DNA from: Bdellovibrionota bacterium
Lineage (GTDB): Bacteria; Bdellovibrionota_C; UBA2361; OMIW01
Assembly (NCBI GenBank): GCA_044345055.1
Contig: JBIJBT010000001.1
Span: 1,956-65,955 of the forward strand
Direction of reading: 5' to 3'
Length of the DNA stretch: 64,000 nucleotides
Below are positions 8,996 to 51,154 of the stretch, in pieces. The first letter of the stretch is position 1. Every line of letters starts with the position of its first letter. A program made the position numbers and the translations under genes. The notes under the pieces are model-generated. The model saw nothing but the letters and a program-made list of their open reading frames with translations. It was not told where the DNA came from and ran no database searches.

Positions 8996-8998
8996 CAA

Positions 8999-24685: not shown

Positions 24686-25927
24686 TTAACCATCAAACGG
24701 TGTGAGTGGGGACTCGTCATCGGGGGGTTCCTCTTTGTGGAGGGCGCCAACGATAAGCACATCGCTTAGGCTACCCGGCAGAATAATTCCCTCAAAATTG
24801 TTTTCAGAGGCAACCACAACCGCAGCACCCTCTGATGAACCCACTGCAAGGATATCTGAAACTGGGGTATCCGGATTCACCACATGTGCTGGAGGCGATG
24901 CTATTTCAGTTACGTACTGCTCCTCGTGATCTGCCCGAGCCGCCGCAGCAAGAAGAGTACGACGATCGACAAGTCCAACGACCCGGCCCTGCAGAATGAC
25001 CGGAAAAACATCCTGAAATGATGATCGAGCCGTCCGGAGAGCAGAAGTTACGGTAACTCCGTGAGTAAAAAAGTCCACTCTATTTGCCGGACGCATAACC
25101 TCTTTTGCCTGCAAACCTGAAGCTGCAAGAAGAGCGGTCTCCTCCATCGCGATGTGTATGGACGCAGCAAGGATCATTAGACACACGAGGAAAAGAGAAA
25201 AGGGTCCCCACCAAAGACAAAAAAGAGCTACGCCCATCGTGATTAGTTGCCCCGAGCGGATTAAACCAAGCGATGAGAGCGAAACTGCTCCCGGTTTTTG
25301 AGGCATCCACTGACGGAATACGCGCCCCATGTCGAGCGGCTCGAGCGGAAGGAGATTAAGAAGTCCGAGAGCAGCCTGTATTACAAAAAGGTGCATTATC
25401 GGGTCTTGCGCAAACGGAAGAGCGGGCCGGGACTTTGAACCGATGAAGAGTGTATACAGGAGTGATGCGGCGATAAGGTGCACAAAGCTGGGCATTAGAT
25501 GATACGCGACCGCTCTTACTTTTGAGGAGGATACCGGAGGAAGCACTTTCCCTCTTGAAAGCCCCATTTCACCAAACGGCATCAGAATAACTTCGCGGGA
25601 GAAATCAGGGATACCGGTTAATCTCCCCACGGCAAGGTGCAAGAGGAGATGAATAATCAGCGATGCAACAACGGCAAGTCCAAAGAGAAGGGTCTGCTGG
25701 CCCGAGAAATTCGATTCTCCCGCTATAACAAGCACTAGGAATACAACCGAGAGGTTAAGACCAATCGAGGTGCCAGCAATCGATCCAAGAGGAATGGAGG
25801 GTAACGGAATTCTCATGCGTATATCGTACCGAAATATGAGAAACGAAACAATCAGGAGGAATAGAGTTGAAGGTAGACCTCGGATAGGAATTATATGATT
25901 TTTGGGCGAATTGTTTATTAAATTCAT
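24686..25927 (-). CDS. Site-2 protease (M50) family membrane protein with C-terminal CBS-domain pair; catalytic HExxH degenerated to HLLLH (predicted non-proteolytic)
   Basis: TM helix ASLIIHLLLHLAVGRLTGIP where M50 enzymes have HELGH. Second zinc-ligand motif retained (LNLLPLEPLDMG). C-terminal CBS pair (ASPPAHVVNPDTPVSDILAV...VVVASENNFEGIILPGSLSDVLIV). Confidence 0.65.
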   Translation of the reverse strand: MNLINNSPKNHIIPIRGLPSTLFLLIVSFLIFRYDIRMRIPLPSIPLGSIAGTSIGLNLSVVFLVLVIAGESNFSGQQTLLFGLAVVASLIIHLLLHLAVGRLTGIPDFSREVILMPFGEMGLSRGKVLPPVSSSKVRAVAYHLMPSFVHLIAASLLYTLFIGSKSRPALPFAQDPIMHLFVIQAALGLLNLLPLEPLDMGRVFRQWMPQKPGAVSLSSLGLIRSGQLITMGVALFCLWWGPFSLFLVCLMILAASIHIAMEETALLAASGLQAKEVMRPANRVDFFTHGVTVTSALRTARSSFQDVFPVILQGRVVGLVDRRTLLAAAARADHEEQYVTEIASPPAHVVNPDTPVSDILAVGSSEGAAVVVASENNFEGIILPGSLSDVLIVGALHKEEPPDDESPLTPFDG

Positions 25928-27657: not shown

Positions 27658-28617
27658 CTATCCTCGGCGCAGATCATCAACTATATAGAGTGGTCGTCCC
27701 TTAACTTCCTCATATATTCGTCCAATATACTCGCCGATTATGCCGAGGATAATTACCTGTAGGCCGAAGAAAAAAGAGATAAGAACGACTATGGCGGTAA
27801 AACCTTTCGGGGAAGTTCCGAGGAAAATGCGCTCTAGAATTGCATAAAATGCATACAAACTTGATGATACCGTTGCAAAAAAACCAACCACCGTTGCAGC
27901 TCGAATTGGTGTCGTTGAAAATGAAAACACTCCATCAGCTGCGAGTTTTATCAATTTATACCAAGAGTATTTGCTCTCGCCGTGTTTTCGAGCGTCGCGA
28001 GGAAGGGCGATTCCTTTTTGACGGAAACCAATCCAGGCGCGAAGCCCCCTTATAAATCGGCGGTGTTCACGATTGGCGCGAAGCTGTTCAACGACTCGCC
28101 GGGTCATTATCGAGAAATCTCCCGCATCGAGAGGGATTTCGGTATCAGAAAGAGAGCGAAGGAGCCGATAAAAGGTTGCGTAACAGAGCCGCAAAAGAGG
28201 TGATTCTTTTCGGTCCTGTCGCTGGACAAATACAACATCAAAACCGTTTTTAGCCTCTGCAAAAAGAAGTGGAATAGCCTCGGGAGGATCTTGAAGATCT
28301 CCATCAATCACTGCGATGTAGTCCCCTTCGCAATGGTCGAGTGCTGCTGTAACCGCGGCCTGATGGCCAAAGTTGCGGGAGAGAGCAAGCAAGCAGAATC
28401 GACTATCGCCCTTTATTAATTGATGGACCGATTGTTTGGTATTATCAGAGCTTCCATCATCAACGAGAATTACCTCGTGGCCTGTTCCTTCAAGCCCGTC
28501 GAGAACCGCGCGAAGGCGATTAATCAGCTCGGGCACACCAGCTTCCTCGTTAAAGAGCGGGACCGCAATCGAGAGTCGTGCACCGATCGTTTCGCTACTC
28601 ACTGTCTCGCAACTCAC
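27658..28617 (-). CDS. GT2 polyprenyl-phosphate sugar synthase (ArnC / GtrB / Ppm1-like)
   Basis: LSIAVPLFNEEAGVPELINRL...EVILVDDGSSDNT...IDGDLQDPPE (DXD). Two C-terminal TM helices, as in ArnC/GtrB. Start overlaps the stop of the upstream small ORF (ATGA). Confidence 0.8.
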   Translation of the reverse strand: MSCETVSSETIGARLSIAVPLFNEEAGVPELINRLRAVLDGLEGTGHEVILVDDGSSDNTKQSVHQLIKGDSRFCLLALSRNFGHQAAVTAALDHCEGDYIAVIDGDLQDPPEAIPLLFAEAKNGFDVVFVQRQDRKESPLLRLCYATFYRLLRSLSDTEIPLDAGDFSIMTRRVVEQLRANREHRRFIRGLRAWIGFRQKGIALPRDARKHGESKYSWYKLIKLAADGVFSFSTTPIRAATVVGFFATVSSSLYAFYAILERIFLGTSPKGFTAIVVLISFFFGLQVIILGIIGEYIGRIYEEVKGRPLYIVDDLRRG

Positions 28618-28865
28618 CGTTTCGCCTCAGCCATGAAAAATCGCCACAGTGGAAGTGGCCCGATTCCGACATCGTATCGCTGAAATAGTTGTGGATGAAT
28701 TGTTTCGTCGAGGAGCGCTCGCCACTCTTGCTCGGGGCGCGGAAACTCACCACGATCAGCTTTTGCGAGGAAATGGGCAACTTTCTGCTTTACGGCGGGA
28801 CACTGCCACAACGCATAAGGAACTGGATTTTCCAAAAGCTGCTCACGAGGGAACTTTAACGCCAT
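28614..28865 (-). CDS. Small hypothetical protein (83 aa), translationally coupled on both sides within the glycosylation operon
   Basis: ORF overlaps the upstream gene by 10 nt and the downstream gene by 4 nt. Not hydrophobic, so not a GtrA-type flippase. Confidence 0.4.
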   Translation of the reverse strand: MALKFPREQLLENPVPYALWQCPAVKQKVAHFLAKADRGEFPRPEQEWRALLDETIHPQLFQRYDVGIGPLPLWRFFMAEAKR

Positions 28866-30688
28866 AATACCACCATTTCATGCCCCGTTACGCGGTTAGG
28901 AAAACGTTCGCGGAGAATCGTGTCTAAGTATGCTGCTCCTGGATCTTCAAGAGTTGCAATCCACGTTACAACGGCCCGCACCCGATCGTCTTTAATCGGC
29001 GTTATCAGGTCGGCTTCAGCACGTCCCGGTGAACCGAGTAACTCGTATAGAATAGGAGTAATGTTTTTCTTTTCGGCAAGGAAATATATGTGAGGCTGCT
29101 CGGGAAACGCCACGACAGCACCGTTTCCTGCCCTTTTCTGTACCTCGGGAATGAGCCAATGGTATCGATCAAAATCTTCCCTTGATACTAGAATCGAAGC
29201 ACCTTTCATTGCAAGGGGAATGTGAAGGTCTCTGCCGGGTTCGCGAAGAGGCAGAAGAGGCGTTATACGCGGAAGCACCCCAAGCATCATAGCGACCGTC
29301 GCCGAGCCCCACTGGATTATTGCGATAGGACGGGTGCCCCATAAGGTATCTCTAGAAATTGCCGCTATCGTGACGAGTATCGGGATTACTGAGTACAGAA
29401 GGTAGCCAGAACCCGTGTAAGGGTATTGATTTAGATTCCAAAACGCTGCCCAGCAACAAATTGCAAAGAGGTATGCCCGTTCGTGGGGTTGTCGATTAGG
29501 TTGATTTCTGAGGTCAAGGACAATCCAGCAAGCCCGAGCTATAATCCACGGAATTATCCCGAGCATTAGAGGCCACAAGATTTTTGGATAGGTTGAGAAT
29601 TGTTCTTCCCCCCATCTTGGTTCGATGCTCACGAGTGCAATCATCACTATCCCGAGGATAATCGAGATTATCTTGATATCACGACGCGAAAATCTTCGTA
29701 TGAAAAAAATAAGTGGTAGAAAGATCAGAATAAGATCTGGTGGAGAAACAGCTGCGGTCGAAAATCTGGCCTGAGGTGATACAAAAACACCATACAACCA
29801 AAGCCGAATATCCCCATATATCCCAAAATAGAGCAAAAAAGGGACCCACACGAGTACAAAACCAAGCAGAAGGGGGAGTACTTTCTTGCACAATATCTTT
29901 ATGGAGGGTGCGCCGTGTCGGTACCACCAAAAAGCCGAAGCTCCGCATACTGAGATAACGGGGAGAAAAAATAGGTAAATAGTGCCTAGTGATAATCTGG
30001 GGGAAATGAGTAATCCGATTCCTGCAATTCCTGCAATCGCAGCTAAAGAAAGTGCCCAAAAAGAGAGCGATTGGGTTGGATTTGAAGGATCATGTCTTTC
30101 TGCTGGTTGAAATATTATTGATGTTGCAAACAATACCGAAAGCACGGCTCCATAGGTAAAAAAAAGTGCGTTTATCTTTATCTCTGTTGCTATACCCAGA
30201 AGGACGCCAGCACCAAATAATAGGAACGCTCGGTCTGTTTGTATCCACCGCACGATAAGAAAAAAAGCAGCTCCAGAGGTAAAGAGAAGATACCAAGAGG
30301 GAAGTGCGACGAAATAGTTAGGAACTGTGGCCATTAGGGAGCCTGCTGTTGCCCAGGCTGCCGAAGGTGGAGAGAGGAAGAGTAAGAATAGTCGATAGAG
30401 ACAAAACGTAAAAACGACGCACGCAGCAAAGAGCGGCCATCGAAGGTAAATTAGATCAACCCCAAAAATCCGAAAAATGGCAGCGTTACCGAGAGTGAGT
30501 AATCCTGTGTAGGGATCAACAAAATCTCGATGGGGAATCTCTCCCTGCAAAACTCGGAGGGCTGTTTGGCCGAGCATTCCATCGTCCCACGGCAACCACC
30601 CGACACCGAGAAAAAGACTAATAAAAAGAAGAGCCATACCTAATGGCAGCCAGATTGAGAGCCGTGAAAGGGTTGAAGTAGGTGTCAT
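28856..30688 (-). CDS. GT-C fold membrane glycosyltransferase, ArnT / PMT-like (GT83/GT39 type)
   Basis: 610 aa, >10 predicted TM helices. The first periplasmic loop after TM1 carries WLPWDDGMLGQTALRVLQGEIP, matching the DE/DD...(Y/H)AEI..(E/R)ML motif of ArnT/PMT enzymes. Large C-terminal soluble domain. 4-nt overlap with the upstream gene. Confidence 0.6.
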   Translation of the reverse strand: MTPTSTLSRLSIWLPLGMALLFISLFLGVGWLPWDDGMLGQTALRVLQGEIPHRDFVDPYTGLLTLGNAAIFRIFGVDLIYLRWPLFAACVVFTFCLYRLFLLFLSPPSAAWATAGSLMATVPNYFVALPSWYLLFTSGAAFFLIVRWIQTDRAFLLFGAGVLLGIATEIKINALFFTYGAVLSVLFATSIIFQPAERHDPSNPTQSLSFWALSLAAIAGIAGIGLLISPRLSLGTIYLFFLPVISVCGASAFWWYRHGAPSIKILCKKVLPLLLGFVLVWVPFLLYFGIYGDIRLWLYGVFVSPQARFSTAAVSPPDLILIFLPLIFFIRRFSRRDIKIISIILGIVMIALVSIEPRWGEEQFSTYPKILWPLMLGIIPWIIARACWIVLDLRNQPNRQPHERAYLFAICCWAAFWNLNQYPYTGSGYLLYSVIPILVTIAAISRDTLWGTRPIAIIQWGSATVAMMLGVLPRITPLLPLREPGRDLHIPLAMKGASILVSREDFDRYHWLIPEVQKRAGNGAVVAFPEQPHIYFLAEKKNITPILYELLGSPGRAEADLITPIKDDRVRAVVTWIATLEDPGAAYLDTILRERFPNRVTGHEMVVLWR

Positions 30689-31968
30689 AGAAAAGTGGTG
30701 CTCCCGGAGGATGGGGAATATCCTTTTGTGCTGTTACGGTGTGCCGAGGTGACCATCGCCCACAACGCCAAAAATCCTAACACTCCTACCTTAATCACAA
30801 AACCGATCACCATCGGCTCCATCTTTAAGAGGGCCACCTCAAGAATGCCAAAGATTGCAAAAGGCATCCATCGGCTGTATCGAATATCTGGATTGATCGC
30901 TGCAGTGAGGGGGAGAAATATTAATATCTGATCATAAAAACCAACGTACGGCGAAAAACAGAGATATACGCCACACACCAAAGACGCAGTCGCCACAAGA
31001 CGCGCACGGGGTGCCATCTTTGAGCCTCTCCAAAATAGCAGCGCGTAGAGAAAACCTCCAATTCCGACTGCAGCTGAGTTGATCAGAAATCGCACATTGT
31101 CATCTAAATGGTGAGCTGAAATTGTAAGCCAGGTGGGGGTGTCTGATCCAAAACCATCCCATAAAAAACCATCTGAACCGATCTGGCCTGATGAATAGCG
31201 GCGAAGGGTTGCGATGAAATCGAGAATAACTCTGTTATGTCCGAAGGGATCAACGAGTATCCCTCCGCCAACGGACAATATTATGCCAATCGAGAGTGCT
31301 CGCCACCGTCGTTCCATGAAAAGAAGCGCAGCGCCGATCGCAAAGTAGTGTAATTTAAGGGAGAGGGTAAAAAGAAGAACTCCATCGATTAGTGGATCTA
31401 TTTTATTTTGTTTTCCTCCAATAAGCCGCTGTAATATCCATCCGCTAACCGCGAGTGCGAAAATACTTGCCTGACCAAGATGTAAACAGGTAAGTCCGGC
31501 GTGCGAAAAGATAGTCCCGAATGTTCCAAATAATAAACAATCACGGGAAAGGGGACCGGCAGAGCGAATCTGCATCCAAATTCTTTGCAAAAGGGTAAGT
31601 ATCGCTCCGAGCGATATCCCAAGCCAAGTTGAGAACGCAAGACTCATCGAGATACGAACCGGAATAAGAAGAGGTGCCCAGATAAGGAGAACCGTCGGCG
31701 AAAAAGCGTTCGGCATAACAGTCGCACCTTGCGATACCTCCATTCCCACAACCTGCTCGAACGCTAGCGTTATCGCCTCTCGACTCGCGATTCCCGGAGC
31801 GCCGTGCCACCAATACGCCACCACCGTCGAGAAAACCATGATAAAATCTCTCACCTTTGATACCCCTTCCTCAACCTCAAAAAGAGGCGGCCGCCCCCAT
31901 GGAGTGATAAATAGCGCAAGGGTGAGGATGAGGCTGGAGGTGAAAAAGAGGGTGAGGGGGTGTTTCAT
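30685..31968 (-). CDS. Polytopic integral membrane protein, possible second GT-C-type glycosyltransferase (DUF2029/GT87-like), first gene of the operon
   Basis: 427 aa, ~10 hydrophobic segments. Family assignment is a guess from size and topology only. Confidence 0.45.
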   Translation of the reverse strand: MKHPLTLFFTSSLILTLALFITPWGRPPLFEVEEGVSKVRDFIMVFSTVVAYWWHGAPGIASREAITLAFEQVVGMEVSQGATVMPNAFSPTVLLIWAPLLIPVRISMSLAFSTWLGISLGAILTLLQRIWMQIRSAGPLSRDCLLFGTFGTIFSHAGLTCLHLGQASIFALAVSGWILQRLIGGKQNKIDPLIDGVLLFTLSLKLHYFAIGAALLFMERRWRALSIGIILSVGGGILVDPFGHNRVILDFIATLRRYSSGQIGSDGFLWDGFGSDTPTWLTISAHHLDDNVRFLINSAAVGIGGFLYALLFWRGSKMAPRARLVATASLVCGVYLCFSPYVGFYDQILIFLPLTAAINPDIRYSRWMPFAIFGILEVALLKMEPMVIGFVIKVGVLGFLALWAMVTSAHRNSTKGYSPSSGSTTFL

Positions 31969-32238
31969 CGGTTTGGGAAGTGTAAATGGCCCCAGTTTGC
32001 CAATTTAAAGGAGAAATTTACCTAAAATAGAGGGACTATGAGGTTCGATTTTGCAACGTTTTTTTCAGAGAGTCGAGCTGATAAATATTGAGGGAAATTA
32101 GGTCGATATTTCGGTTGTTATATCGGGTAAACTGAAAGCCGTTACAATCTATAATAACAGAGACACGTTTTTTCCGAAATGAAAGCTCAATAATCCCGTT
32201 TCTTGGTGTAATTGTTCTTTTATTTGCGGTCCCTCTCT

Positions 32239-36571: not shown

Positions 36572-37552
36572 ATGTTTGGCGAGCTCTCAATTTTTGATGT
36601 CTCTCAAGGGACCGCAGGTCTTATCGCTCGTATTGATGGTGGCGACGCTATAGTTGGAAGAAGCTCTGATGCCCGCGTTCCTCTTGTAGGCGACGCTATT
36701 TCGTTTGAGCATGGGATCCTCTCGAAAAAAGCTGACTTTTGGTTTTTTAAAGATCTCAGGAGCACTAATGGAAGCTGGATTAACGGTAATCAGCTGAGGG
36801 CGGACCATTGGTATTCGGTCCGTGGAGGAGATGTACTTCAGGTCGGGGACGCGATAGTGCGGCTCGAGGAACATGGGCGTGTCGGTCCTTTTGTGGAGGC
36901 CTGTTTGTTGGTGTTGGAAAAAGGGGAATTCCTTCGCGAATTCTCGATTCCGAACGAGGGAGTTGCGGCCTCGGTGGGTGGATTGCGCGGAGACCTACCT
37001 CTCCCCTCGGCAGCATCGTCTCGGGCATCACTAGTCTTTGATGTTCGTCACGGTTGCTTATCCGCCAAAGGAGAATCGGGATTGCTCGTCGGTAAGAAGA
37101 ACGGTGAAGAGGTAGTTTTGCCGGTCGAGCTTTTTGATCGAGATGAAATAGCAATCGGCGATTATCAGATTTTCGTTCAGTTACCTCATCAAGGTGGGGA
37201 TCAAGGGAAAAACGGGTCTCGGTTATCTAAGGATACATGGGATGTCTCGGATCGGACCACTTCCGACGGCAGTTCGTGGGTGCAGAGGCCCCGTTTTGGA
37301 GATATGGCTTCAGGCAGGGAACGGGATGGTGAACTTCTTGGAACAGATGGTGCGGAGCTAGCGGCTCGGTTTATCGGAACCAGTGCCGGGGGCGAGGGTC
37401 GACCTCTTGCTCAGGACTCTCTCGCATTTCTTCCTCCACCTCCTCCTCGTCCGGGGCCATTTTTGAATACGAGTGAGGGGCGATGGATTGCTGCTGCACT
37501 TATAGTTCTTTTCGTGTCCGCTCTCTTAATTTCAGTACTCCTTTTTAATTAA
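36572..37552 (+). CDS. FHA-domain protein with Pro-rich linker and C-terminal transmembrane anchor
   Basis: FHA signature IVGRSSDARVPLVGDAISFEHGILSKKADFWFFKDLRSTNGSWINGNQL...GDVLQVGDAIVRL. A second degenerate FHA-like segment. PPPPPRPGPF. Terminal WIAAALIVLFVSALLISVLLF. Confidence 0.75.
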   Translation: MFGELSIFDVSQGTAGLIARIDGGDAIVGRSSDARVPLVGDAISFEHGILSKKADFWFFKDLRSTNGSWINGNQLRADHWYSVRGGDVLQVGDAIVRLEEHGRVGPFVEACLLVLEKGEFLREFSIPNEGVAASVGGLRGDLPLPSAASSRASLVFDVRHGCLSAKGESGLLVGKKNGEEVVLPVELFDRDEIAIGDYQIFVQLPHQGGDQGKNGSRLSKDTWDVSDRTTSDGSSWVQRPRFGDMASGRERDGELLGTDGAELAARFIGTSAGGEGRPLAQDSLAFLPPPPPRPGPFLNTSEGRWIAAALIVLFVSALLISVLLFN

Positions 37553-37613: not shown

Positions 37614-38345
37614 TTGCTAATCACTAAAACTGCGCCTTCTCGACACCGCTACAGTCTGGGGCGAATTAATTTGGGTGCAAAACTGGAGCTTCCTCAGCCC
37701 GTTCAACAGGAGCTGCTCGCGTGCCTTCATGATAAGGCGGAGGGGCCAAGAGAAGGGTTGGCGGGACGTGCGGCTGTAAGGTTTGCTCATCTTTCGGGTA
37801 TTGGTCCGGTCGTCATTAAGAAATATTGTCGAGGTGGGGCACTCCGTTTTCTGCGTTCATCGGTTCACTTTCGTGCTGGTCAGGTTCGATCGGAGCGGGA
37901 ATTTGAGGTGTTGGAAAAGGTTCGGGCTCTCGGTATTCCGGCGCCGGAACCCGTTGCCTTTGCTTGGCGAGGAGGGCGATGGTATCGAGCATGGCTTGTT
38001 ACTCGTCATATCGAGAATACGCGTACCTTGGCAGATATTAGCCGAGTTGATGAAGCGCGGGCTCAAACGGTGGCGCGACAGCTTGTTCCTTTAGTAGAGA
38101 AGTTAATCGCGAACGGGGTCTTTCATATTGATTTTCATCCCGGGAACGTAGTTGTCGATGAGGAGGGTCGTCTCTCTATCGTCGATTTTGACAAAGCCCG
38201 AATCGTCACGGGAAGAGAGCGTAGGAGACTTGCAGAACGTTATCTTAGACGTTGGCGGCGAGCAGTTATTAAGCATAATCTCTCCGAGGTGCTCACAGAA
38301 GTTCTCTGCTCCGCGCTTCGCCGACGAGATATCGCGAGCCATTGA
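37614..38345 (+). CDS. 3-deoxy-D-manno-octulosonic acid (Kdo) kinase / LPS kinase family (KdkA-like)
   Basis: VVIKKYCRGGALRFL...REFEVLEKVRALGIPAPEPVAF...VFHIDFHPGNVVVDEEGRLSIVDFDKAR matches the Kdo/WaaP kinase catalytic core (H.D.HPGN...IDFD). Confidence 0.7.
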   Translation: MLITKTAPSRHRYSLGRINLGAKLELPQPVQQELLACLHDKAEGPREGLAGRAAVRFAHLSGIGPVVIKKYCRGGALRFLRSSVHFRAGQVRSEREFEVLEKVRALGIPAPEPVAFAWRGGRWYRAWLVTRHIENTRTLADISRVDEARAQTVARQLVPLVEKLIANGVFHIDFHPGNVVVDEEGRLSIVDFDKARIVTGRERRRLAERYLRRWRRAVIKHNLSEVLTEVLCSALRRRDIASH

Positions 38346-38382
38346 TCATGCGTACATTTCTGATGCAGGTAGGGAGCAGAAT

Positions 38383-39411
38383 GTGACAGCTATCGGAGAA
38401 CCACGAAACATTTTGATAGTACTTCTAGGGGCGCTTGGAGATGTCGCTAGAGGTTCAACGATAATCCCGCCACTTCGTCGGCGCTTTCCGAATGCGCATA
38501 TCTCGTGGCTAGTTGAGACTAAGAGCGCATCTTTTGTTCGGCTCAACGAGCGAGTGGACACCGTGTATGAGTTCGTGCGGAGTCGCTGGTGGGAGAGCGC
38601 CGAACTTTTATGGCGGTTGCGGCAAAGCCGCTTTGATCTGGTTCTTGATCTGCAGCGTCATCTAAAGAGTGGATTGTTCTCATTTTCCACGGGTGCTCCT
38701 CGTCGCGTTGGGGTGAATCGAAAAAATGCCAAAGAGGGCAATTGGCTATTTAATACGGAGCAGTGTGGCTTCATCCCCGATTCAGAATCAAAAATGGAGC
38801 TTTATCGCGCGTTTCTTACGGCGTTGGGGATTGAGGAGGGACTAGATCATTCGGGGGGATTTCGCCGCGAGCAGTTTCTTCCACTCTTGCCAGACGAAGT
38901 TGTGCGATTGCCCGGCCGCCGAGTAGGGGTAGTAATGGGCTCAACCTGGCCCACTAAAGACCTCCCCAAGCAGGGGTATCAACAGCTGATATCGGGAATA
39001 TTAAAGGAGACAGATTTCTCGGTTGTATTGTTAGGGGATAAAACTCAGGCAGCCTTAGGAAAGGAAATAGCGGAGGTCTCTGCGGGAGGACCGCGAATAA
39101 TCAATGTTGCGGGCTCAACAAACCTTGGCCAGCTCATGGGCGTGCTCGCCTCAAGTGCGGCGGTGATTGGACCTGATTCTGGTCCGGGACATCTCTCATC
39201 CTTAGTGGGGACCCCCTATGTGACGATCTTCGGACCGACCGATCCGAAACGGGTTGCTCCGTTTGGGAGTGAACCGTTCTCGATAATTCCGGCGATCGGG
39301 TGCGCGCCGTGCTGGCGTCGCAGCTGTCCTGGCCTTAACAACCTATGTATGCGGCTCCACGCGCCATCAGAGATGGTAGCCCAGGTAGTTGCGGCGGCCT
39401 CGACGCGGTAG
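38383..39411 (+). CDS. Glycosyltransferase family 9 (LPS heptosyltransferase-like). Start proposed at GTG ~38383, preceded by AGGGAG; the ORF-track start at 38152 would overlap kdkA by 190 nt.
   Basis: RNILIVLLGALGDVARGSTIIPPLRRRFPNAHISWLVE...DLVLDLQ...GPDSGPGHLSSLVGTPYVTIFGPTDP...IGCAPCWRRSCPGLNNLCM (Cys4 cluster, as in the other GT9). Confidence 0.75.
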   Translation: MTAIGEPRNILIVLLGALGDVARGSTIIPPLRRRFPNAHISWLVETKSASFVRLNERVDTVYEFVRSRWWESAELLWRLRQSRFDLVLDLQRHLKSGLFSFSTGAPRRVGVNRKNAKEGNWLFNTEQCGFIPDSESKMELYRAFLTALGIEEGLDHSGGFRREQFLPLLPDEVVRLPGRRVGVVMGSTWPTKDLPKQGYQQLISGILKETDFSVVLLGDKTQAALGKEIAEVSAGGPRIINVAGSTNLGQLMGVLASSAAVIGPDSGPGHLSSLVGTPYVTIFGPTDPKRVAPFGSEPFSIIPAIGCAPCWRRSCPGLNNLCMRLHAPSEMVAQVVAAASTR

Positions 39412-39463
39412 GCTTCGGATAATTTGCGATAATTCTCATTATAACGCTCAACCTTTACAAATT

Positions 39464-40504
39464 ATGAATCCCTATAGATTGACAAATGCTGAGAGGATTT
39501 TCGAATTGGTCGAGCGATTGCGCGACGTTCGGATTCTCGTTGTGGGCGATATTATGCTCGATCGTTACGTCTGGGGGCGTTCAGACCGGCTCTCCCCTGA
39601 GGCCCCGGTGCCGGTTGTTGATGTAAAGCGAATTGAAGATCGGGTTGGGGGAGCCGCAAACGCAGCGAGAAACTTTAGAGGACTGGGAGTTCAATGCGAG
39701 CTTTGTGGATTGGTTGGTGATGACGAAGAGGGGCGTACGGTTGTTCGACTTCTCGAAGAGGCGGGGATTGGACACGAGGGGGTTTTGATAGAGCGTAACC
39801 GTCCAACGACCTTCAAAACTCGGGTCATGGTTGGTATGTACCAGATGCTCCGGATTGACCGCGAGGATGCAGCTCCTCGTGAATTGCCGATGCAGCGCGG
39901 GTTAGCCGCGATGATGCAGGCCCAGGCCGCAGGGAGCGATGCAATCGTAATATCTGACTATGGCAAGGGAGCTGTGTCGCCATCTCTTATTGAAAGAGCC
40001 AGTGAGTCAGTATCTGTGACAGATGGTCGCGTGCCGGTAATAGTCGACCCTAATAAACTAAATTTTGCGATGTACCGCGGCATTAGTATCGCAAAGCCTA
40101 ACCGGCGTGAGGCCGAAGCGGCCTCGGGGATCTCGATAATCGATAGGCGGTCAGCGTTTGAAGCCGCCTGGAAACTGCGTGATAAGTGGCAGTCGTCGAT
40201 GATGATGGTGACCCTTGCTGAAATGGGTCTTGTGCTCGTGGGACCAGATGAGGGAGAGGAGTATCATCTTCCGACAGAGGCCCAACAAGTTTTCGATGTA
40301 AGTGGTGCTGGTGATTGTGTGACGGCTGTTTTTACGGCATTTCTTGCAGCGGGAGCAACACCACTTGTCGCCGGGATGATAGCCAATATCGCTGCAGGAA
40401 TCGTGGTTTCTGAATTAGGAACAGTTGCGATTACCATAGAGCAGCTCCGCGCCAAGTTGCGTCAGGTTCTCGCCGAGCATCCAGAGCGATTAGCTATTTT
40501 GTAG
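39464..40504 (+). CDS. D-glycero-beta-D-manno-heptose-7-phosphate kinase (HldE kinase domain / HldA type); no adenylyltransferase domain. Start proposed at ATG ~39464 (MNPYRL).
   Basis: RILVVGDIMLDRYVWGRSDRLSPEAPVPVV...VGGAANAARN...DVSGAGDCVTAVFTAFLAAGAT, ribokinase-fold RfaE domain I. Protein ends ~347 aa, with no room for the HxGH nucleotidyltransferase domain. Confidence 0.75.
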   Translation: MNPYRLTNAERIFELVERLRDVRILVVGDIMLDRYVWGRSDRLSPEAPVPVVDVKRIEDRVGGAANAARNFRGLGVQCELCGLVGDDEEGRTVVRLLEEAGIGHEGVLIERNRPTTFKTRVMVGMYQMLRIDREDAAPRELPMQRGLAAMMQAQAAGSDAIVISDYGKGAVSPSLIERASESVSVTDGRVPVIVDPNKLNFAMYRGISIAKPNRREAEAASGISIIDRRSAFEAAWKLRDKWQSSMMMVTLAEMGLVLVGPDEGEEYHLPTEAQQVFDVSGAGDCVTAVFTAFLAAGATPLVAGMIANIAAGIVVSELGTVAITIEQLRAKLRQVLAEHPERLAIL

Positions 40505-42779: not shown

Positions 42780-43769
42780 GTGGCTAAAACGACCAACGAA
42801 GCGTCGCGTATGATAACGACTCAACCGCTTCTCGCGAAGCGGTTTGAGTTGATCAAAGTGCTCGGTTCGGGTGGGGCTGCTGCAGTTTTTCATGTTAAAG
42901 ATAATGAGCGAGGTGGGGAAGAGGTTGCGCTAAAGGTCCTCACTAATTCCGGGGTATTCGATGCCCTAACGCTATCGCGGTTTGAAGCTGAGGTCGCGCT
43001 TCTTCAGGAAATTAATCATCCACATATAGTTCGAGCATACGACTTTATTTCGCTCGGCCATACAGTTGCTTATACGATGGAGTTGGTACGGGGCAAGGAA
43101 CTATCCCGATATCTGAAGCCAGGATCTCTTGGGTATGGATCGATTGATTCGATTTTTCGACAGCTGCTTTCAGCGCTTCACGAGCTTCATAGTCGAGGGG
43201 TTTTTCACCGCGACCTGAAGCTTGAAAATCTCCTTTACTGTGAGGAATCGGGGATTAAGCTCGCAGATTTTGGCTTGATGAAGATTAAGCGAACCTCACG
43301 TGACACTCAGGCCGGTGTCTTACTAGGAACCGCTCAGTATTTGCCCCCCGAATATATAAGATCAAATCGATACGATGCTCGGAGCGACCTCTATTGTGTT
43401 GGTCTTCTGTTGTTCGAAATGGTTTCTGGTACCCGATGGCTATCAAAGTTCTCTGGTAATGATTCAATAACCTATCTCGTAGAGCGAAATTTTGTCGTGC
43501 CTTACGAGCTACCCCTAACGGTTCCCCGAAAATATCATCGGATAATAGAGAAAGCGATTAAAGCGGATGCAAAGCGTCGGTATCAGTCAGCCTACGATAT
43601 GTTAGTGGCGTTTGCAGAAGATGAGACACAAAATCGTCGAGGAAGAAAGTTTCGAAATGGACTTGGCGGATTTGAGGGGCGTGGAGTTCGGTATTATCTC
43701 CGAGACCCTGTCATACTTTTTTTTATAGTTATGTTTATTCTCGTGACTGGCGCGATATCGCTTTTGTAG
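42780..43769 (+). CDS. Hanks-type serine/threonine protein kinase with C-terminal transmembrane segment
   Basis: Gly loop LGSGGAAAVF, VALK (K), HRDLKLENLL, DFGLMK, APEY-like YLPPEY. Terminal ILFFIVMFILVTGAISLL. Confidence 0.85.
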   Translation: MAKTTNEASRMITTQPLLAKRFELIKVLGSGGAAAVFHVKDNERGGEEVALKVLTNSGVFDALTLSRFEAEVALLQEINHPHIVRAYDFISLGHTVAYTMELVRGKELSRYLKPGSLGYGSIDSIFRQLLSALHELHSRGVFHRDLKLENLLYCEESGIKLADFGLMKIKRTSRDTQAGVLLGTAQYLPPEYIRSNRYDARSDLYCVGLLLFEMVSGTRWLSKFSGNDSITYLVERNFVVPYELPLTVPRKYHRIIEKAIKADAKRRYQSAYDMLVAFAEDETQNRRGRKFRNGLGGFEGRGVRYYLRDPVILFFIVMFILVTGAISLL

Positions 43770-43843: not shown

Positions 43844-44242
43844 TTACCGTGTGAGAATCATTAACCAAGGGATAAGAGCTGCGCTGATATACACCAGGCA
43901 CAATAACAAGAGAGCCTGACCGACCCACACTACCTGAGAGCCCATTTGTCGAAGGCCTATTGTCATTCCAATAGCAGCGCCTTTTGCAAGAAGAAGGGTT
44001 GGGATTACTCCGATGAGCTTCATCGTCTCTCGAAGAATGAAGTTTCCCTCAAGGCTTATGCCGAATCGATGCATCCCCGCTGCAGTTGCGATACCATCCA
44101 ACAGCTGACACACTATTAGAAGAAGCGCCAGGTTATCCACGACTCTCGGCAGTCTGAGCAATCCGCCTAGACCGAGGGAGAGGGAGGTGTTTGCGGTGGA
44201 AGTTGCGATTGAGGATGCCATAACTGTCCCTAGCGAAACCAT
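43844..44242 (-). CDS. Small hypothetical membrane protein (132 aa, ~4 TM)
   Basis: Hydrophobic ORF with no recognisable motif. Confidence 0.4.
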   Translation of the reverse strand: MVSLGTVMASSIATSTANTSLSLGLGGLLRLPRVVDNLALLLIVCQLLDGIATAAGMHRFGISLEGNFILRETMKLIGVIPTLLLAKGAAIGMTIGLRQMGSQVVWVGQALLLLCLVYISAALIPWLMILTR

Positions 44243-47207: not shown

Positions 47208-48314
47208 ATGAACAAGTATAACGGCTCTGTATCAATCTGTTTTGCCGTAGATAGTGGCGCATCAATCGATGTAGAGCGGGCGCGTCATCGTGTCCACGGA
47301 TTGCGGGTCAATGCTCCGCGAAACGATCCTGATCGGGTGTTGCTGCATGTTGCTCGTTCGTGTGAACCGCTCGAAATTATTCCGGGCTCTGTAACAGATC
47401 CCCGTGTCGAGTTGACGATGTACTCCGATTTCGGCGGTATTTGCTTACGTTTTCGGCTTCTTTTTTCTGGTACAATGCGGCAGTGGGTCGAACTGAGTGA
47501 TTCGATCAATGATAACGTGGCTCTTGAGGGGCTCGCGCTTGAATGTACTCGGTTGGTCTGCGCGGAGTTGGGGAATGCTCTAATCGAGCCCGCGATCGCA
47601 AAGAACGCGGAGGACTATCCTATTTTTTGTATTCAGGTTGCAGAGGACGAGGATCTTGATGCTTTTGTAGAGTCTTATCGTGCGGAGATTGCTCAAATCG
47701 TCAACGCCGAAAGGTTTTCCCTTCATCATCAGATGATTCGCGAGACTATAGAGGGTAGAATCTCGTGGTATCAAAACGATAGTCTCTTTATCGACTGGAG
47801 TGGAGCGGCACTTATTCGTAACCCGAAGAGGGTTGAAGATGTTGTTGCTGAGGATACGGTGGCAGCGCTCGAGTTTGCGAATATGCAGCTTCATCAGTTC
47901 GATATCCTTGCCAGACGCCTCGATCGCGCTGTGGTTGAGGCGTATAGAGTGCCGTTCGATCAAGGTGTCACCGAGGCGGATCAACAACATCTGGATGCTC
48001 TAACCATCGATGCAGCGGAGCTTATCGGTCGTGTTGGTAGTGGACTTAAAATATTCTCAGACAAGCATCAGGCCCGCTTGCTGCGTGTTGTTGCACGTCG
48101 GTTCGAATTTCAGGCCCGTTCCGACGAAATTCGGGGAAAAATCGCGGATCTCCGTACGATTCGCCAACGAGTTGTTGATAAGAGACGGCATCGACAAGCA
48201 CATCTTGTCGAGGTGCTCATTGCAAGTTTGATTGTTATTGAGGTGCTGCCTCTTTTGTATCGTGGATTACTCCTCCTCATTAGTACTATTTTCGGCAGCG
48301 GGGAGCCGGTATAG
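47208..48314 (+). CDS. Hypothetical protein with C-terminal hydrophobic anchor (possibly DUF155/RMD1-like)
   Basis: 368 aa, mostly soluble, ending HLVEVLIASLIVIEVLPLLYRGLLLLISTIFG. Family guess is unverified. Confidence 0.4.
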   Translation: MNKYNGSVSICFAVDSGASIDVERARHRVHGLRVNAPRNDPDRVLLHVARSCEPLEIIPGSVTDPRVELTMYSDFGGICLRFRLLFSGTMRQWVELSDSINDNVALEGLALECTRLVCAELGNALIEPAIAKNAEDYPIFCIQVAEDEDLDAFVESYRAEIAQIVNAERFSLHHQMIRETIEGRISWYQNDSLFIDWSGAALIRNPKRVEDVVAEDTVAALEFANMQLHQFDILARRLDRAVVEAYRVPFDQGVTEADQQHLDALTIDAAELIGRVGSGLKIFSDKHQARLLRVVARRFEFQARSDEIRGKIADLRTIRQRVVDKRRHRQAHLVEVLIASLIVIEVLPLLYRGLLLLISTIFGSGEPV

Positions 48315-49458
48315 AGTCGCTAATTGAATGAGCATCGATGAAACCTGGAGTAGGTCTAATTATCTGATAAAATGGTCCAGTACGACAAGCAAATGTGACC
48401 TCCTCATCTCTATTAACAACATCGCGAACTTCGCTCCACCTGTCATCGGACGCAAAAATACGAGCAGATAGGGCAGTAATAAGTGCTTGTTCAGCAGTAT
48501 TTTCATCCGCTGCCGCTATTTGATTGCGCTCGTTATCTCCCCTAGCTGATAGTTCGTGGAATGAAGGAGGCGAATCTGAAGATCGCTCCTCGATAATCCG
48601 AGGTCGGTAGCGGTTATTTAGTATCCGTTGTCCTCTCTGTCGTGCCGCTGGAAGAAGAGATCTTAGGTATGCCGAACGTTTTGTCGAGGAGGGATGAGTA
48701 GAGAAGAACTCAAGCTGTCCGCCGCTAAATGCGGGGTCCGATTGAACACGCTCCCAAAAAGCAACTGCTGCGTCAGGATTAAATCCTGCATCCGCCATCA
48801 AAAAAAGGCCAATCTGGTCAGCCTCAAACTCCTGTCGCCTTGATTCAGGATTAATTACAAGGCCACGAATTCCCTGCTCGACAATTGCTCCGCCTAGCTG
48901 AGCAGCCATCGAGGTCGCACCACCTCCACCCGCTATTATCTGAGAAGCCGCAGTTCCTCCGACTGATGCCATCGCCTCTGAGAGCTGTTCTGCAGGATTG
49001 GGCATGACGTGCTGCGCGAGAACGTGAGCCATTTCATGAGCGATTATTGCGGCGAGTTCGTCATCTCCCTGAACCACTCGCAATAATCCGGACCAGATAA
49101 ATATATAGTTTCCTCGGGTTGCAGCGGCATTTTTTATCTGATCATCAGCGAATACATAAACTCTCCACCCCCCTTGAGGACTTCCTGCAGCCCGAGCAAG
49201 GGTTGCAACGACACGGCGAGTCTGTGCAATATCGTGAGAGTCTCGGGAGGGTGGAAAATTAGCTGAAAGCTGGGCTAAGACTCGCTCACCATAGAGGTTG
49301 TCCTCCTGGGAAGTTGCTGACCAATGAGGAATTTCTCCTGGCGCAATTGCGTGTCTCCTCGCGGCGCAGCCAGCGAAGATAATACAAATACAGGAGGTGA
49401 ACAGAATACGGATTAATCGCATAGAAAAGTTATAACATAGAGGCTCCAGGGGAGCCAT
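48286..49458 (-). CDS. M48 family metallopeptidase lipoprotein (periplasmic BepA/LoiP-like). Start may be the internal MRLIRIL.
   Basis: Lipobox IFAGC. Zinc motif IIAHEMAHVLAQH. 390 aa. Confidence 0.7.
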   Translation of the reverse strand: MAPLEPLCYNFSMRLIRILFTSCICIIFAGCAARRHAIAPGEIPHWSATSQEDNLYGERVLAQLSANFPPSRDSHDIAQTRRVVATLARAAGSPQGGWRVYVFADDQIKNAAATRGNYIFIWSGLLRVVQGDDELAAIIAHEMAHVLAQHVMPNPAEQLSEAMASVGGTAASQIIAGGGGATSMAAQLGGAIVEQGIRGLVINPESRRQEFEADQIGLFLMADAGFNPDAAVAFWERVQSDPAFSGGQLEFFSTHPSSTKRSAYLRSLLPAARQRGQRILNNRYRPRIIEERSSDSPPSFHELSARGDNERNQIAAADENTAEQALITALSARIFASDDRWSEVRDVVNRDEEVTFACRTGPFYQIIRPTPGFIDAHSISDSIPAPRCRK

Positions 49459-49518
49459 TTCGCAAGAAAGTAGAAGGTATCTCTATCGTCACGAAGTTAA
49501 GGACATTTTTTTTGGAGA

Positions 49519-50013
49519 ATGACTCCGATGACAAGCAACCACAATGTGTTCTCTCCTTTCCGTTTTAATTCATTAGCAGTTGTCCTGATAGTTTTCCTCT
49601 TCGGATGTCGAGAAGAACAATCTGAGGAGGCGAGGGCACCCGCAAGTCACTCCGAAGTGCCGGCGGTTGAGAAGGCTGAAAGTGAGGATAGTGTGATATC
49701 GAACGCTCTTGATGCGCTCAAGAATGGGGCATCAAAGGTACATGAGGCGGTCGAGCCGTATGCTTCCCCGATGAAAGATACCGCTGTTGATTCGATGCAG
49801 AAGATAGTTGCAATAGACTATAAGATCATTGAGATAGATTCTGATGATCCCATTCCATCAATTGAAGGTCGTCTTACTGCACTAGGACGTGAACGTTGGG
49901 ATTGCTCTCCGATGCCATCAAACGAGTTTGTCTCCCGCTTTCTCTGCAAACGATTCCCGCTCAACTTCTACATTAAAGCACTCTCCTTTTTGCCAAAATT
50001 AGCAGGCGATTAG
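49519..50013 (+). CDS. Hypothetical lipoprotein
   Basis: Signal peptide with lipobox LFGC. Acidic and serine-rich. No recognisable domain. Confidence 0.4.
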   Translation: MTPMTSNHNVFSPFRFNSLAVVLIVFLFGCREEQSEEARAPASHSEVPAVEKAESEDSVISNALDALKNGASKVHEAVEPYASPMKDTAVDSMQKIVAIDYKIIEIDSDDPIPSIEGRLTALGRERWDCSPMPSNEFVSRFLCKRFPLNFYIKALSFLPKLAGD

Positions 50014-50041
50014 ATGGCAGTTCTCAGTCGGTGTTCCTCGC

Positions 50042-51133: not shown

Positions 51134-51154
51134 GATCTGAACCTCGTTGCTACC

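Follow-up and report, generated by a model that had tools for sequence, protein, structure and literature searches.

Gtr systems of Shigella, Salmonella and their phages glucosylate the O antigen by means of the flippase GtrA, the undecaprenyl-phosphate-glucose (Und-P-Glc) synthase GtrB and a serotype-specific Gtr enzyme of the GT-C type. Related pairs decorate lipid A or core in Francisella (FlmF/FlmK), Bordetella (LgmA/LgmB) and Rhizobium (RgtE/RgtA-D), and in the Rgt system one GT2 enzyme serves several GT-Cs. The Pgf protein-glycosylation operon of Streptococcus mutans consists of the GT2 PgfS, the polytopic PgfM1 and PgfM2, and PgfU/PgfE. The GT87 enzyme Rv2181 uses polyprenyl-P-mannose as the sugar donor. 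Soluble methyltransferases also act on lipid-linked glycans: Haloferax AglP on a dolichol-P-linked glycan and WbdD on the Und-PP-linked O-antigen. The general logic of the Gtr pathway is that of the established three-component model (PMC11127046, where WbdD is also mentioned), and polyprenyl-P-mannose is the donor of another GT87 enzyme, PimE (PMC12041525).

The window, the 64,000-nucleotide stretch of DNA analyzed here, contains one more uncharacterized decoration operon of the GtrB-plus-GT-C kind, in this case from an uncultured diderm bacterium. The locus is probably a reduced operon for lipid-linked sugar decoration, composed of three working genes (A, B and D) and one gene remnant (ORF C). 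As the 83-amino acid ORF would be what a recent deletion left of a methyltransferase gene, the locus looks like an ordinary system caught losing accessory genes. It shares with the Gtr systems a conserved GT2, the full-length GtrB homologue D, paired with a polytopic GT-C; with Rhizobium Rgt, a single GT2 accompanied by several GT-Cs; and with the Pgf operon, one GtrB-like synthase and two polytopic transferases. Unlike the Gtr systems, it lacks a GtrA-like flippase gene, is chromosomal rather than phage-borne, and has a second GT-C (A, GT87-like), while B is PMT_2-like with a C-terminal soluble domain and not of the GtrII (PF14264) kind. Furthermore, the cassette from which it would derive has two SAM methyltransferases and gtr clusters have none. 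The differences from the Pgf operon include the absence of epimerase genes and the Gram-negative host.

Operon layout and the GT2 synthase

The four ORFs lie on the minus strand in the order A (30685..31968, 427 amino acids), B (28856..30688, 610 amino acids), C (28614..28865, 83 amino acids) and D (27658..28617, 319 amino acids). The first three start with ATG and D starts with GTG. As read from the sequence, A and B overlap by 4 nt at an ATGA, B and C by 10 nt (ATGGCGTTAA), and C and D by 4 nt at a GTGA. The coordinates, lengths and 4/10/4-nt overlaps confirmed the original prediction of four real ORFs overlapping by 4-10 nt. A GAGG Shine-Dalgarno sequence of D is located at 28625..28628 on the minus strand, 7 nt 5′ of the GTG and within the 3′ end of ORF C. 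Four independent metagenomes have contigs (L001-L004) with the same four ORFs, and A, B and D are free of frameshifts and stop codons in the window, in L001-L004 and in the related loci L042 and L005. Because the four ORFs recur in this manner and A, B and D have low dN/dS values, the arrangement is not due to chance. The sole sizeable non-coding gap upstream of the operon is the 270-nt intergenic stretch 5′ of A (31969..32238, minus strand). A scan for the sigma-70 consensus in the region upstream of A produced no match on the operon strand, and the placement of the promoter within this stretch is therefore presumptive.

By its sequence, D is a full-length polyprenyl-phosphate glycosyltransferase of the GtrB/ArnC type. 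It matches PF00535 (E 8e-31, residues 16-179), and the comparison to PDB sequences paired its residues 13-316 with residues 26-329 of the 341 in GtrB (Synechocystis sll0501, 5EKP; E 7e-73). ArnC was also matched over the full length with E 3.5e-50, which places D nearer GtrB. Among the NCBIfam models the best match was PgfS (E 5.7e-71, full length), followed over the full length by ArnC. The scores were 239 bits for PgfS against a cutoff of 500, 187 bits for ArnC against an equivalog cutoff of 529, and 16 bits for PpgS against 370; D scored under the cutoff of every NCBIfam equivalog model and is thus not a PgfS equivalog. The DXD motif, D105-G106-D107 within IDGDLQDPPE (28297..28305, minus strand), corresponds position by position to IDADLQDPPE in the alignment to GtrB sll0501, which also covers GDF and the C-terminal TM pair. 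Hydropathy analysis located two hydrophobic helices at approximately residues 243-301. The cytoplasmic GT-A catalytic domain, juxtamembrane region and two C-terminal TM helices constitute the full-length layout of the class. These matches, together with the DGD at positions 105-107 and the helix pair, support the earlier proposal of an ArnC/GtrB-like polyprenyl-P-sugar synthase with a DXD and a C-terminal TM pair.

D would work at the cytoplasmic face of the inner membrane, where it would take one sugar unit from a nucleotide sugar and load it onto undecaprenyl phosphate. The closeness of D to GtrB makes a hexose the most plausible candidate for this sugar. The Und-P-sugar would then be flipped by a transporter encoded outside the locus. 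No GtrA, SMR or MATE-like flippase was recognized in the operon or the 64-kb window, the sole small polytopic ORF in the window (43844..44242) has no Pfam match, and the commonest families adjoining the related cassettes elsewhere include no flippase family. The flipping step of the original prediction consequently has no recognized gene in the window.

The ArnC/ArnT aminoarabinose pathway resembles the locus in the full-length match of D to ArnC and in an acidic dyad of B comparable to D55/E56 of ArnT. However, a Pfam scan of 54 window ORFs, which covered every ORF of 150 amino acids or more with two exceptions, identified no ArnA, ArnB or ArnD (formyltransferase/decarboxylase, aminotransferase, deformylase/deacetylase) and no ArnE/F. 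The locus also differs from that pathway in the 187 bits of D on the ArnC model and in the absence of any sequence match between B and the GT-C enzymes in the PDB. These results agree with the earlier view that this is not an arn (Ara4N) locus.

Two candidate GT-C glycosyltransferases

No Pfam or NCBIfam model matched A or B, even with E ≤ 1 as the threshold; the direct Pfam match that had been suggested as a check for both proteins was not obtained. Nonetheless, three homologues of B score above the PF13231 cutoff of 26.1, namely P0005 (58% identity to B; 32.3 bits) and P0008 and P0009 (about 30% identity). The AlphaFold model of B had a pLDDT of 72 and a pTM of 0.76, the best 25 Foldseek matches of this model were all GT-C proteins, and the predicted structure superposes on solved GT-C enzymes. 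Hydropathy analysis indicated 13-14 hydrophobic segments, and a C-terminal soluble alpha/beta domain occupies residues ~476-610. The motif WDDG...ALRVLQGEIP corresponds to residues 34-52 and begins with the acidic-dyad site W34-D35-D36-G37, located after TM1 (30578..30589, minus strand). D35 is found in at least 90% of 22 family sequences, whose consensus at the dyad is GWxPHDEGALGQ. ArnT (D55/E56), Pmt (D77/E78) and the Emb enzymes are known to have their active site at a DD or DE dyad in EL1 (PMC7801869). D35-D36 would be the GT-C acidic dyad of B, likened to D55 of ArnT by motif. The structure model and the intermediate homologues, which are the basis of the assignment, support B as a GT-C enzyme of the PMT_2/ArnT type, and with the dyad they back the original ArnT/PMT-like designation.

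The product of A has about 10 hydrophobic segments by hydropathy. A profile search retrieved 131 relatives of A, and 36 of the 79 that were aligned match the GT87 model PF09594, which found no match in A, P0015, P0016 or P0020. The relative P0017, with E 1.5e-48 to the A profile, scored 43 bits on GT87 (cutoff 25). In addition, hhalign comparison of the Pfam-negative clade that includes A to the GT87-positive clade gave a probability of 100% and E 2e-54 over 380 columns. A structure model of A built from four sequences was unusable (pLDDT 40). Every one of the 79 family members in the alignment has D41, P91, P99, Q166 and K205. D41 (codon at 31846..31848, minus strand) is in the first loop after TM1 and is a candidate catalytic base. 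In PimE, D58 at the tip of JM1 is the catalytic base, and Q163 and K195 are located at the donor phosphate (PMC12041525). By analogy, D41 is inferred to be the equivalent of D58.

The resemblance of A to PimE and Rv2181 extends to its homology to proteins that pass the GT87 model, its size class (~400-430 amino acids) and its ~10 TM segments, and the invariant first-loop Asp, the Gln and the Lys recall D58, Q163 and K195 of PimE. On the other hand, A itself falls below the GT87 model, and searches of the PDB sequences with profiles built from A or from the GT87-positive proteins related to it retrieved nothing, not even PimE. The host carries LPS genes and is a diderm instead of an actinobacterium, and the adjacent synthase D is GtrB-like, not Ppm1-like. 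The evidence supports A as a divergent GT87 relative to which the GT-C fold would extend by one homology step. The earlier assignment of A to the DUF2029 (now GT87) kind of GT-C was borne out through the PF09594-positive relatives and hhalign.

In the proposed pathway B is inferred to use a polyprenyl-phosphate-linked donor, presumably the product of D, on the periplasmic face, and would pass the sugar to an envelope acceptor with the participation of the D35-D36 loop and the C-terminal domain. A, coupled to B by the ATGA, could add a further residue or serve a second site, probably also with the product of D. It is possible, if rather unlikely, that A and B belong to different pathways, B working with D and A, merely co-transcribed, using polyprenyl-P-mannose from an unlinked synthase. 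Mycobacterial GT87 enzymes use that donor, none of the 33 B-family loci of other phyla includes A, and the related locus L043 has a disrupted A next to an intact B and D. A-family genes also occur without an adjacent GT2 in L047 and L048, and A may for this reason use a donor made elsewhere. However, the A-B order and ATGA overlap are kept in L001-L005 and L042, and the more distant L045 has A, a polytopic protein and a D-like GT2 in this order at the same chromosomal site. Moreover, A is only distantly GT87-like, so the donor specificity of GT87 cannot be carried over to it.

Origin of the 83-amino acid ORF

The protein encoded by ORF C has no Pfam match and no hydrophobic segment (maximum KD19 0.43). 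Its residues 9-35 match residues 9-35 of the methyltransferase MT1 and its residues 29-81 match MT1 residues 147-199 with 72% identity (E 6e-28); a second MT1 homologue showed the same two-ended match. The syntenic relative L042, 92% identical, has an intact 201-amino acid MT1 at the position of C. Compared to this allele, exactly 354 nt, or 118 codons, are missing from C, from VLDVGCGPGTN through LVVLDL. The lost segment is the whole SAM-binding core of MT1, including motif I (GxGxG). A breakpoint scan of C against the L042 MT1 located the minimum-mismatch range at nt 87-103 of C, and the deletion junction (28763..28779, minus strand) is a hybrid of the two parental copies of an imperfect direct repeat of 18 nt, GCCC[C/A]TTTCCT[C/T]GCAA[G/A]A; both of these copies are visible in L042. 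As judged from these alignments, C is a remnant of the class-I SAM methyltransferase MT1 whose core was deleted between direct repeats, and not a functional methyltransferase. The tempting interpretation of the neat, coupled 83-amino acid ORF as a new small subunit thus needs correction. As a candidate new small protein, C was ruled out by the two-ended match to MT1, the intact L042 allele and the repeat-bounded 354-nt loss.

The original prediction had counted C as a soluble fourth component, and it is now seen to consist of the two ends of a methyltransferase without the catalytic core. A complete four-component system in which C is a genuine accessory subunit (a GT2 activator such as GacJ is for GacI, a chaperone or an adaptor) and the GT-Cs hexosylate lipid A or LPS core is highly improbable. 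The ORF is indeed intact, translationally coupled at both ends and of identical length in four metagenomes, and its last 49 codons match the L042 ones with 98% identity. However, its first 29 residues show six differences from L042, one of which is F24A in a PF motif kept in the four other MT1 homologues examined, C is not a membrane protein, and L005 kept A, B and D and has no ORF C. In L005 only the last ~25 MT1 codons are left, including the GAGG and the start codon. Genes for an LpxL-like acyltransferase, GT9 heptosyltransferases and a Kdo/WaaP kinase are found within 3-10 kb of the operon, in line with a lipid A or core acceptor, but housekeeping genes part the operon from LPS genes, which are at a distance of 3-6 kb, and the neighbors of the cassette in other phyla are unrelated to those found here. 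On these grounds the earlier suggestion of hexose substitution of lipid A has no specific support.

As a remnant, C would have no enzymatic role and may survive only by being recent and in frame. It still bears the B stop/start overlap, together with the ribosome-binding site of D and the overlap at the start of D. As intact, deleted and erased alleles are all available, the locus offers a clean case of repeat-mediated in-frame decay that spares downstream coupling.

The cassette in other genomes and selection on its genes

A D homologue is found within 8 kb of a B homologue in 20 of 33 GTDB loci, which belong to several phyla, and in most of these 20 the order on one strand is B-MT1-D-MT2. 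The same order is present in the metagenome loci L006, L008, L043 and L044. Such conserved proximity speaks for a functional link between B and D and is indirect evidence for a polyprenyl-phosphate-linked donor of B. This cassette of a GT-C, a methyltransferase, a GtrB-like protein and a second methyltransferase occurs in MAGs of Gemmatimonadota, Acidobacteriota and Planctomycetota. MT1 (~200 amino acids) and MT2 (~245 amino acids) match generic class-I methyltransferase models only. By gene order and homology, the window locus is a reduced derivative of this widespread cassette. Its lineage would have started from A-B-MT1-D-MT2, with B-MT1-D-MT2 as the module common to several other phyla. 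A cassette origin formed no part of the original prediction. The comparison brought to light a conserved cassette whose description was not found in the published literature, and two membrane enzymes, A and B, that escape current family models.

Tentatively, B-MT1-D-MT2 might represent a form of the three-component system that spans phyla and has not been described, in which the two soluble methyltransferases modify the Und-P-sugar on the cytoplasmic face and the GT-C installs the methylated sugar on the envelope. Like AglP and WbdD, MT1 and MT2 are SAM methyltransferases encoded with lipid-linked glycosylation genes, which indicates a possible role for them; in contrast, those of the window are non-functional or absent. 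If methyltransferases do act on the lipid-linked sugar, this would give a well-known pathway a new variation. Both being gone in the population represented by the window, the glycan is presumably made there without methyl decoration.

The close relatives differ in what they lost. L043 has a truncated A next to an IS and intact MT1 and MT2, L042 lost MT2 and kept MT1, the window lost MT2 and the core of MT1, and L005 lost MT2, retains almost nothing of MT1 and kept A. Only B and D persist across all of them, intact in each case. If the cassette reading is true, the lineage would be a natural allelic series (full, without MT2, without MT2 and MT1, without A) from which the contribution of each gene could be worked out.

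The stepwise loss of MT2 and MT1 could mean that the whole pathway is being dismantled, in which case A, B and D would be young pseudogenes-to-be that still look intact in a pathway made useless by methyltransferase loss. The losses just described, including the IS-interrupted A, would fit such a decay, as would the 59% identity of B in L005, where its neighbors have 83-88%, and the dN/dS of 0.36 for D against L042, a figure with few changes behind it. Nevertheless, general decay is improbable: reading frames and catalytic motifs (the DD of B, the D41 of A and the DXD of D) are intact, B and D were kept in every relative examined, and A, B and D are under purifying selection. The dN/dS values against the relatives were 0.14-0.21 for A, 0.15-0.23 for B and 0.04-0.36 for D, and those of the flanking housekeeping genes were 0.09-0.15. 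Against the more distant L043 and L005 the three genes gave 0.04-0.21, as in the flanking housekeeping genes.

The reduced but working operon is the preferred reading. With B and D as a core that is conserved and A, MT1 and MT2 as accessories that vary, the pattern resembles surface-antigen diversification. This analogy suggests that the product is a glycan exposed on the envelope and that diversifying selection acts on it. As in the Gtr systems, the GT2 is conserved and the GT-C diverges or is swapped: the identity of D is 87-88% in L043 and L005 and that of B is 79% in L043, and in L045 the slot of B is filled by a non-homologous 629-amino acid membrane protein.

Operon layout and a methyltransferase remnant

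The four minus-strand ORFs, A (30685..31968, 427 aa), B (28856..30688, 610 aa), C (28614..28865, 83 aa) and D (27658..28617, 319 aa, GTG start), form a real operon. They overlap by 4 to 10 nt, as first described, and the same set is found on contigs of four independent metagenomes (L001-L004). Read from the sequence, the A/B and C/D junctions are the 4-nt overlaps ATGA and GTGA, respectively, and the B/C junction is the 10-nt overlap ATGGCGTTAA. A GAGG lies 7 nt ahead of the D start codon. An RlmI-like methyltransferase gene is located upstream of A, after a gap of 270 nt, and a PCMT gene downstream of D, after a gap of 176 nt. A promoter and terminator scan detected nothing resembling a sigma-70 site ahead of A, and the number of terminators matched chance expectation.

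In direct scans, none of A, B and C had a Pfam or NCBIfam match at E ≤ 1. The nature of C was indicated by distant loci where a class I methyltransferase of about 200 aa, MT1, is encoded between a B homologue and a GT2 gene. Residues 9-35 of C align to residues 9-35 of MT1, and residues 29-81 align to MT1 residues 147-199 (72% identity, E 6e-28). In the close relative L042, which shares RlmI-to-LpxL synteny with the window and whose B is 92% identical, an intact 201-aa MT1 is found exactly at the position of C, which is 354 nt (118 codons) shorter. The breakpoints fall within an imperfect 18-nt direct repeat, GCCC[C/A]TTTCCT[C/T]GCAA[G/A]A (28763..28779, minus strand). Motif I (VLDVGCGPGTN) and all that follows as far as LVVLDL are lost in this deletion, which rules out methyltransferase activity for C. 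Besides, 6 of its first 29 residues are changed with respect to L042, including the PF motif, which is kept in the other MT1 homologues examined. What the original prediction took for a small soluble protein thus consists of the two ends of MT1 with the 118 core codons deleted, and these alignments identify C, with high confidence, as a pseudogene remnant. In another close relative, L005, MT1 is reduced to its last 25 or so codons, in a 154-nt spacer; the GAGG and the D start lie within these codons.

The identity between the window and L042 is mosaic throughout the 10 kb compared, where blocks of 100% alternate with blocks of 82-93%. It is lowest, 82-87%, in the approximately 300 nt directly 5′ of the deletion junction (28779..29085), which suggests that a recombination tract was associated with the MT1 deletion. 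A search for traces of a second methyltransferase, MT2, in the D-PCMT spacers of the window, L042 and L005 produced only insignificant tblastn matches; therefore, MT2 must have been removed cleanly or long ago.

The synthase and the two predicted membrane transferases

The product of D matched PF00535 (E 8e-31) and, over its full length, the NCBIfam models PgfS (239 bits) and ArnC (187 bits), with scores well short of the equivalog cutoffs. The closest PDB sequence was Synechocystis GtrB (5EKP, E 7e-73, D 13-316 versus GtrB 26-329), followed by ArnC (E 3.5e-50). Because the alignment spans both C-terminal helices as well as the GDF and DXD motifs (the latter D105-G-D107 in IDGDLQDPPE), D can be assigned with high confidence as a polyprenyl-phosphate glycosyltransferase of the GtrB/ArnC type, in agreement with the ArnC-like synthase initially proposed. 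A hexose would be its likeliest sugar, but as a guess only.

Relatives of B are scarce. A word-indexed search of 5.8 billion proteins returned only ten, a broader alignment added one weak match, and comparison of the B profile with PDB sequences produced no genuine match. The cutoff of PF13231 (PMT_2) was passed by three of the ten relatives, one 58% identical to B and two at about 30%. The AlphaFold model built from the ten-sequence alignment (pLDDT 72, pTM 0.76) was used in a Foldseek search, and the best 25 matches were all GT-C proteins. The residues W34-D35-D36-G37 are located in the loop following TM1, where the ArnT, Pmt and Emb enzymes carry the DD/DE dyad of the active site (PMC7801869), and D35 is conserved within the family. 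Residues 476 to 610, approximately, are predicted to form a soluble alpha/beta domain. The assignment of B to the GT-C fold therefore stands on its model and on its PF13231-positive homologues, although B itself lacks a direct Pfam match; B is a GT-C enzyme of a subfamily overlooked by current models.

The proposal that A is also a GT-C protein fared similarly: homology to GT87 (PF09594) proteins favors it, despite the lack of a direct Pfam match. The word-indexed search found only four close relatives, and an exhaustive HMMER search with the A profile found 131 of a length similar to that of A. PF09594 was matched by 36 of 79 aligned relatives. Among these 36 are the nearest of the distant relatives, one of which had an E value of 1.5e-48 to the A profile and scored 43 bits against GT87, for which the cutoff is 25. 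When the profile of the Pfam-negative A clade was aligned to that of six GT87-positive proteins, the probability was 100% (E 2e-54, 380 columns). D41, in the first loop past TM1, Q166 and K205 are invariant in all 79 sequences. In PimE, a solved GT87 enzyme, the catalytic base is D58, at the tip of JM1, and Q163 and K195 are at the donor phosphate (PMC12041525). By analogy, it is plausible that the three invariant residues of A are their counterparts. Searches of PDB sequences with the profiles of the A and B families reached nothing or chance matches such as tapasin, and those of A did not reach PimE; the four-sequence AlphaFold model of A was too poor to use (pLDDT 40). The A and B families were unrelated at the profile level in hhalign, and A is consequently not a paralogue of B. 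The operon belongs to a known kind of system, and its membrane enzymes, A and B, escape current family models.

A wider cassette and its variation among close relatives

In a scan where each GTDB species was represented by a single genome, 33 loci of the B family were identified, with best-segment identities of 25-47%, in MAGs of Gemmatimonadota, Acidobacteriota, Planctomycetota and Acidimicrobiia; the lineage of the window was not represented in the collection. Profiles for A, B, D, MT1 and MT2 were then run against the ORFs of these loci, and a D homologue was found within 8 kb of B in 20 of them. The contiguous arrangement B-MT1-D-MT2 was present in 11, of which two have B in duplicate; two further loci reach the contig edge right after B-MT1-D, and seven have rearranged versions. 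None of the 33 includes an A-family gene. MT1 and MT2 matched only generic methyltransferase models. The window operon derives from this conserved GT-C/MTase/GT2/MTase cassette, which, found outside the window, is a more interesting lead than the operon itself; a literature search found no published PPGT + GT-C + methyltransferase cassette. Neighborhood enrichment over 21 loci showed heterogeneous flanks with no recurrent flippase or acceptor-related family and no hint of the acceptor. A GT87 gene near the cassette in one locus (L044) was compared with A and rejected as its orthologue.

Several Gemmatimonadales cassettes are flanked by two more large polytopic families without Pfam match, one of about 670 aa upstream and a paralogous pair of 530-630 aa downstream on the opposite strand (L010:5992-8010, L015:391-2409, L012:84-1958, L008:2656-4671; L010:12122-15543 and L014:12045-15418). 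These proteins may be additional transferases. Two Gemmatimonadota MAGs also encode, a few kb upstream of the cassette, proteins of about 1050 aa with a spermine/spermidine-synthase-like domain that are 72% identical to each other (L010:2099-5257 and L014:2118-5147).

Gene content varies among the close relatives. L043 (B 79% identical to that of the window) has B-MT1-D-MT2, L042 has A, B, MT1 and D and lacks MT2, the window has lost MT2 and the MT1 core, and L005 (B 59% identical) has lost nearly all of MT1. From this pattern, B and D are the stable core, with A, MT1 and MT2 as accessories that can be dispensed with. In L043, at L043:195-2053, a DDE transposase gene abuts the C-terminal 231 residues of A (197-427), all that is left of it; A is therefore inactivated there while B-MT1-D-MT2 is intact. 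As also occurs in gtr clusters, the synthase changes more slowly than the GT-C position, which either evolves or is exchanged at a higher rate. The dN/dS values were 0.14-0.21 for A, 0.15-0.23 for B and 0.04-0.36 for D, and 0.09-0.15 for the flanking genes.

The B gene of L005 (L005:1541-3361; cf. window 28856..30688) shows its 59% identity amid A, D, PCMT and LpxL genes at 83-88%; either the allele was replaced by recombination or it evolved far faster than its neighbors. At the same chromosomal site in L045, with a P-type ATPase, RlmI and an A homologue (36% identical), a 629-aa polytopic protein (L045:7306-9195) occupies the place of B upstream of a D-like GT2. It was rejected as a B homologue, having no detectable similarity to B. 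Another GT87 gene and a PMT_2 gene are close by.

Proposed pathway and genomic context

The standard scheme of lipid-linked extracytoplasmic glycosylation (PMC11127046) is the best supported here: D would charge undecaprenyl phosphate with a sugar, an unlinked transporter would flip the product, B would pass the sugar to an envelope acceptor, and A would add a further residue or serve another site. The methyl decoration of the ancestral system, on whatever target, would have been lost in the window lineage. We consider it probable that the locus is a lipid-linked sugar operon with an MT1 remnant. Confidence is high in the family assignments and in the remnant, moderate that B and D act together, lower that A uses the same donor, and low for any particular acceptor; lipid A is neither supported nor excluded. 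The flipping step originally envisaged has no recognizable flippase gene in the window. The only small polytopic ORF there (43844..44242, minus strand, 132 aa, at least three hydrophobic segments, no Pfam match) is for that reason the sole local candidate, a very weak one.

The window comes from the chromosome of a diderm bacterium and includes rpsB-tsf-pyrH-frr-uppS-cdsA-dxr-rseP, an LpxL-like acyltransferase, a Kdo/WaaP-family kinase, GT9 heptosyltransferases and a PfkB kinase. It has no arn genes, which bears out the earlier view that this is not a canonical arn locus, and no rRNA or other Rfam match. Housekeeping genes separate the operon from the LPS genes, at a distance of 3-10 kb. LPS-core-type genes are found on one side of the region at 37614..40504 (the Kdo/WaaP-family kinase, a GT9 heptosyltransferase and the PfkB kinase) and on the other at 7166..10666, where a 609-aa Glyco_trans_1_2/DUF3880/Maf-like protein is encoded beside a 555-aa GT9 protein. 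As listed, ORFs 37614..38345 and 38152..39411 share about 190 nt, and one of the two starts is therefore probably placed too far upstream. Around the LPS-core-type genes are an FHA-domain protein (36572..37552) and a Ser/Thr protein kinase (42780..43769). A minus-strand cluster at 48286..51817 encodes two peptidases of the M48 family (48286..49458 and 50042..51133) and a LemA-family protein (51155..51817). A minus-strand ORF located between the Hsp20 and LpxL-like genes (24686..25927) encodes a 413-aa protein with about seven hydrophobic segments and a C-terminal CBS domain; gene callers gave its counterpart in related contigs a later start, for a length of 376 aa.
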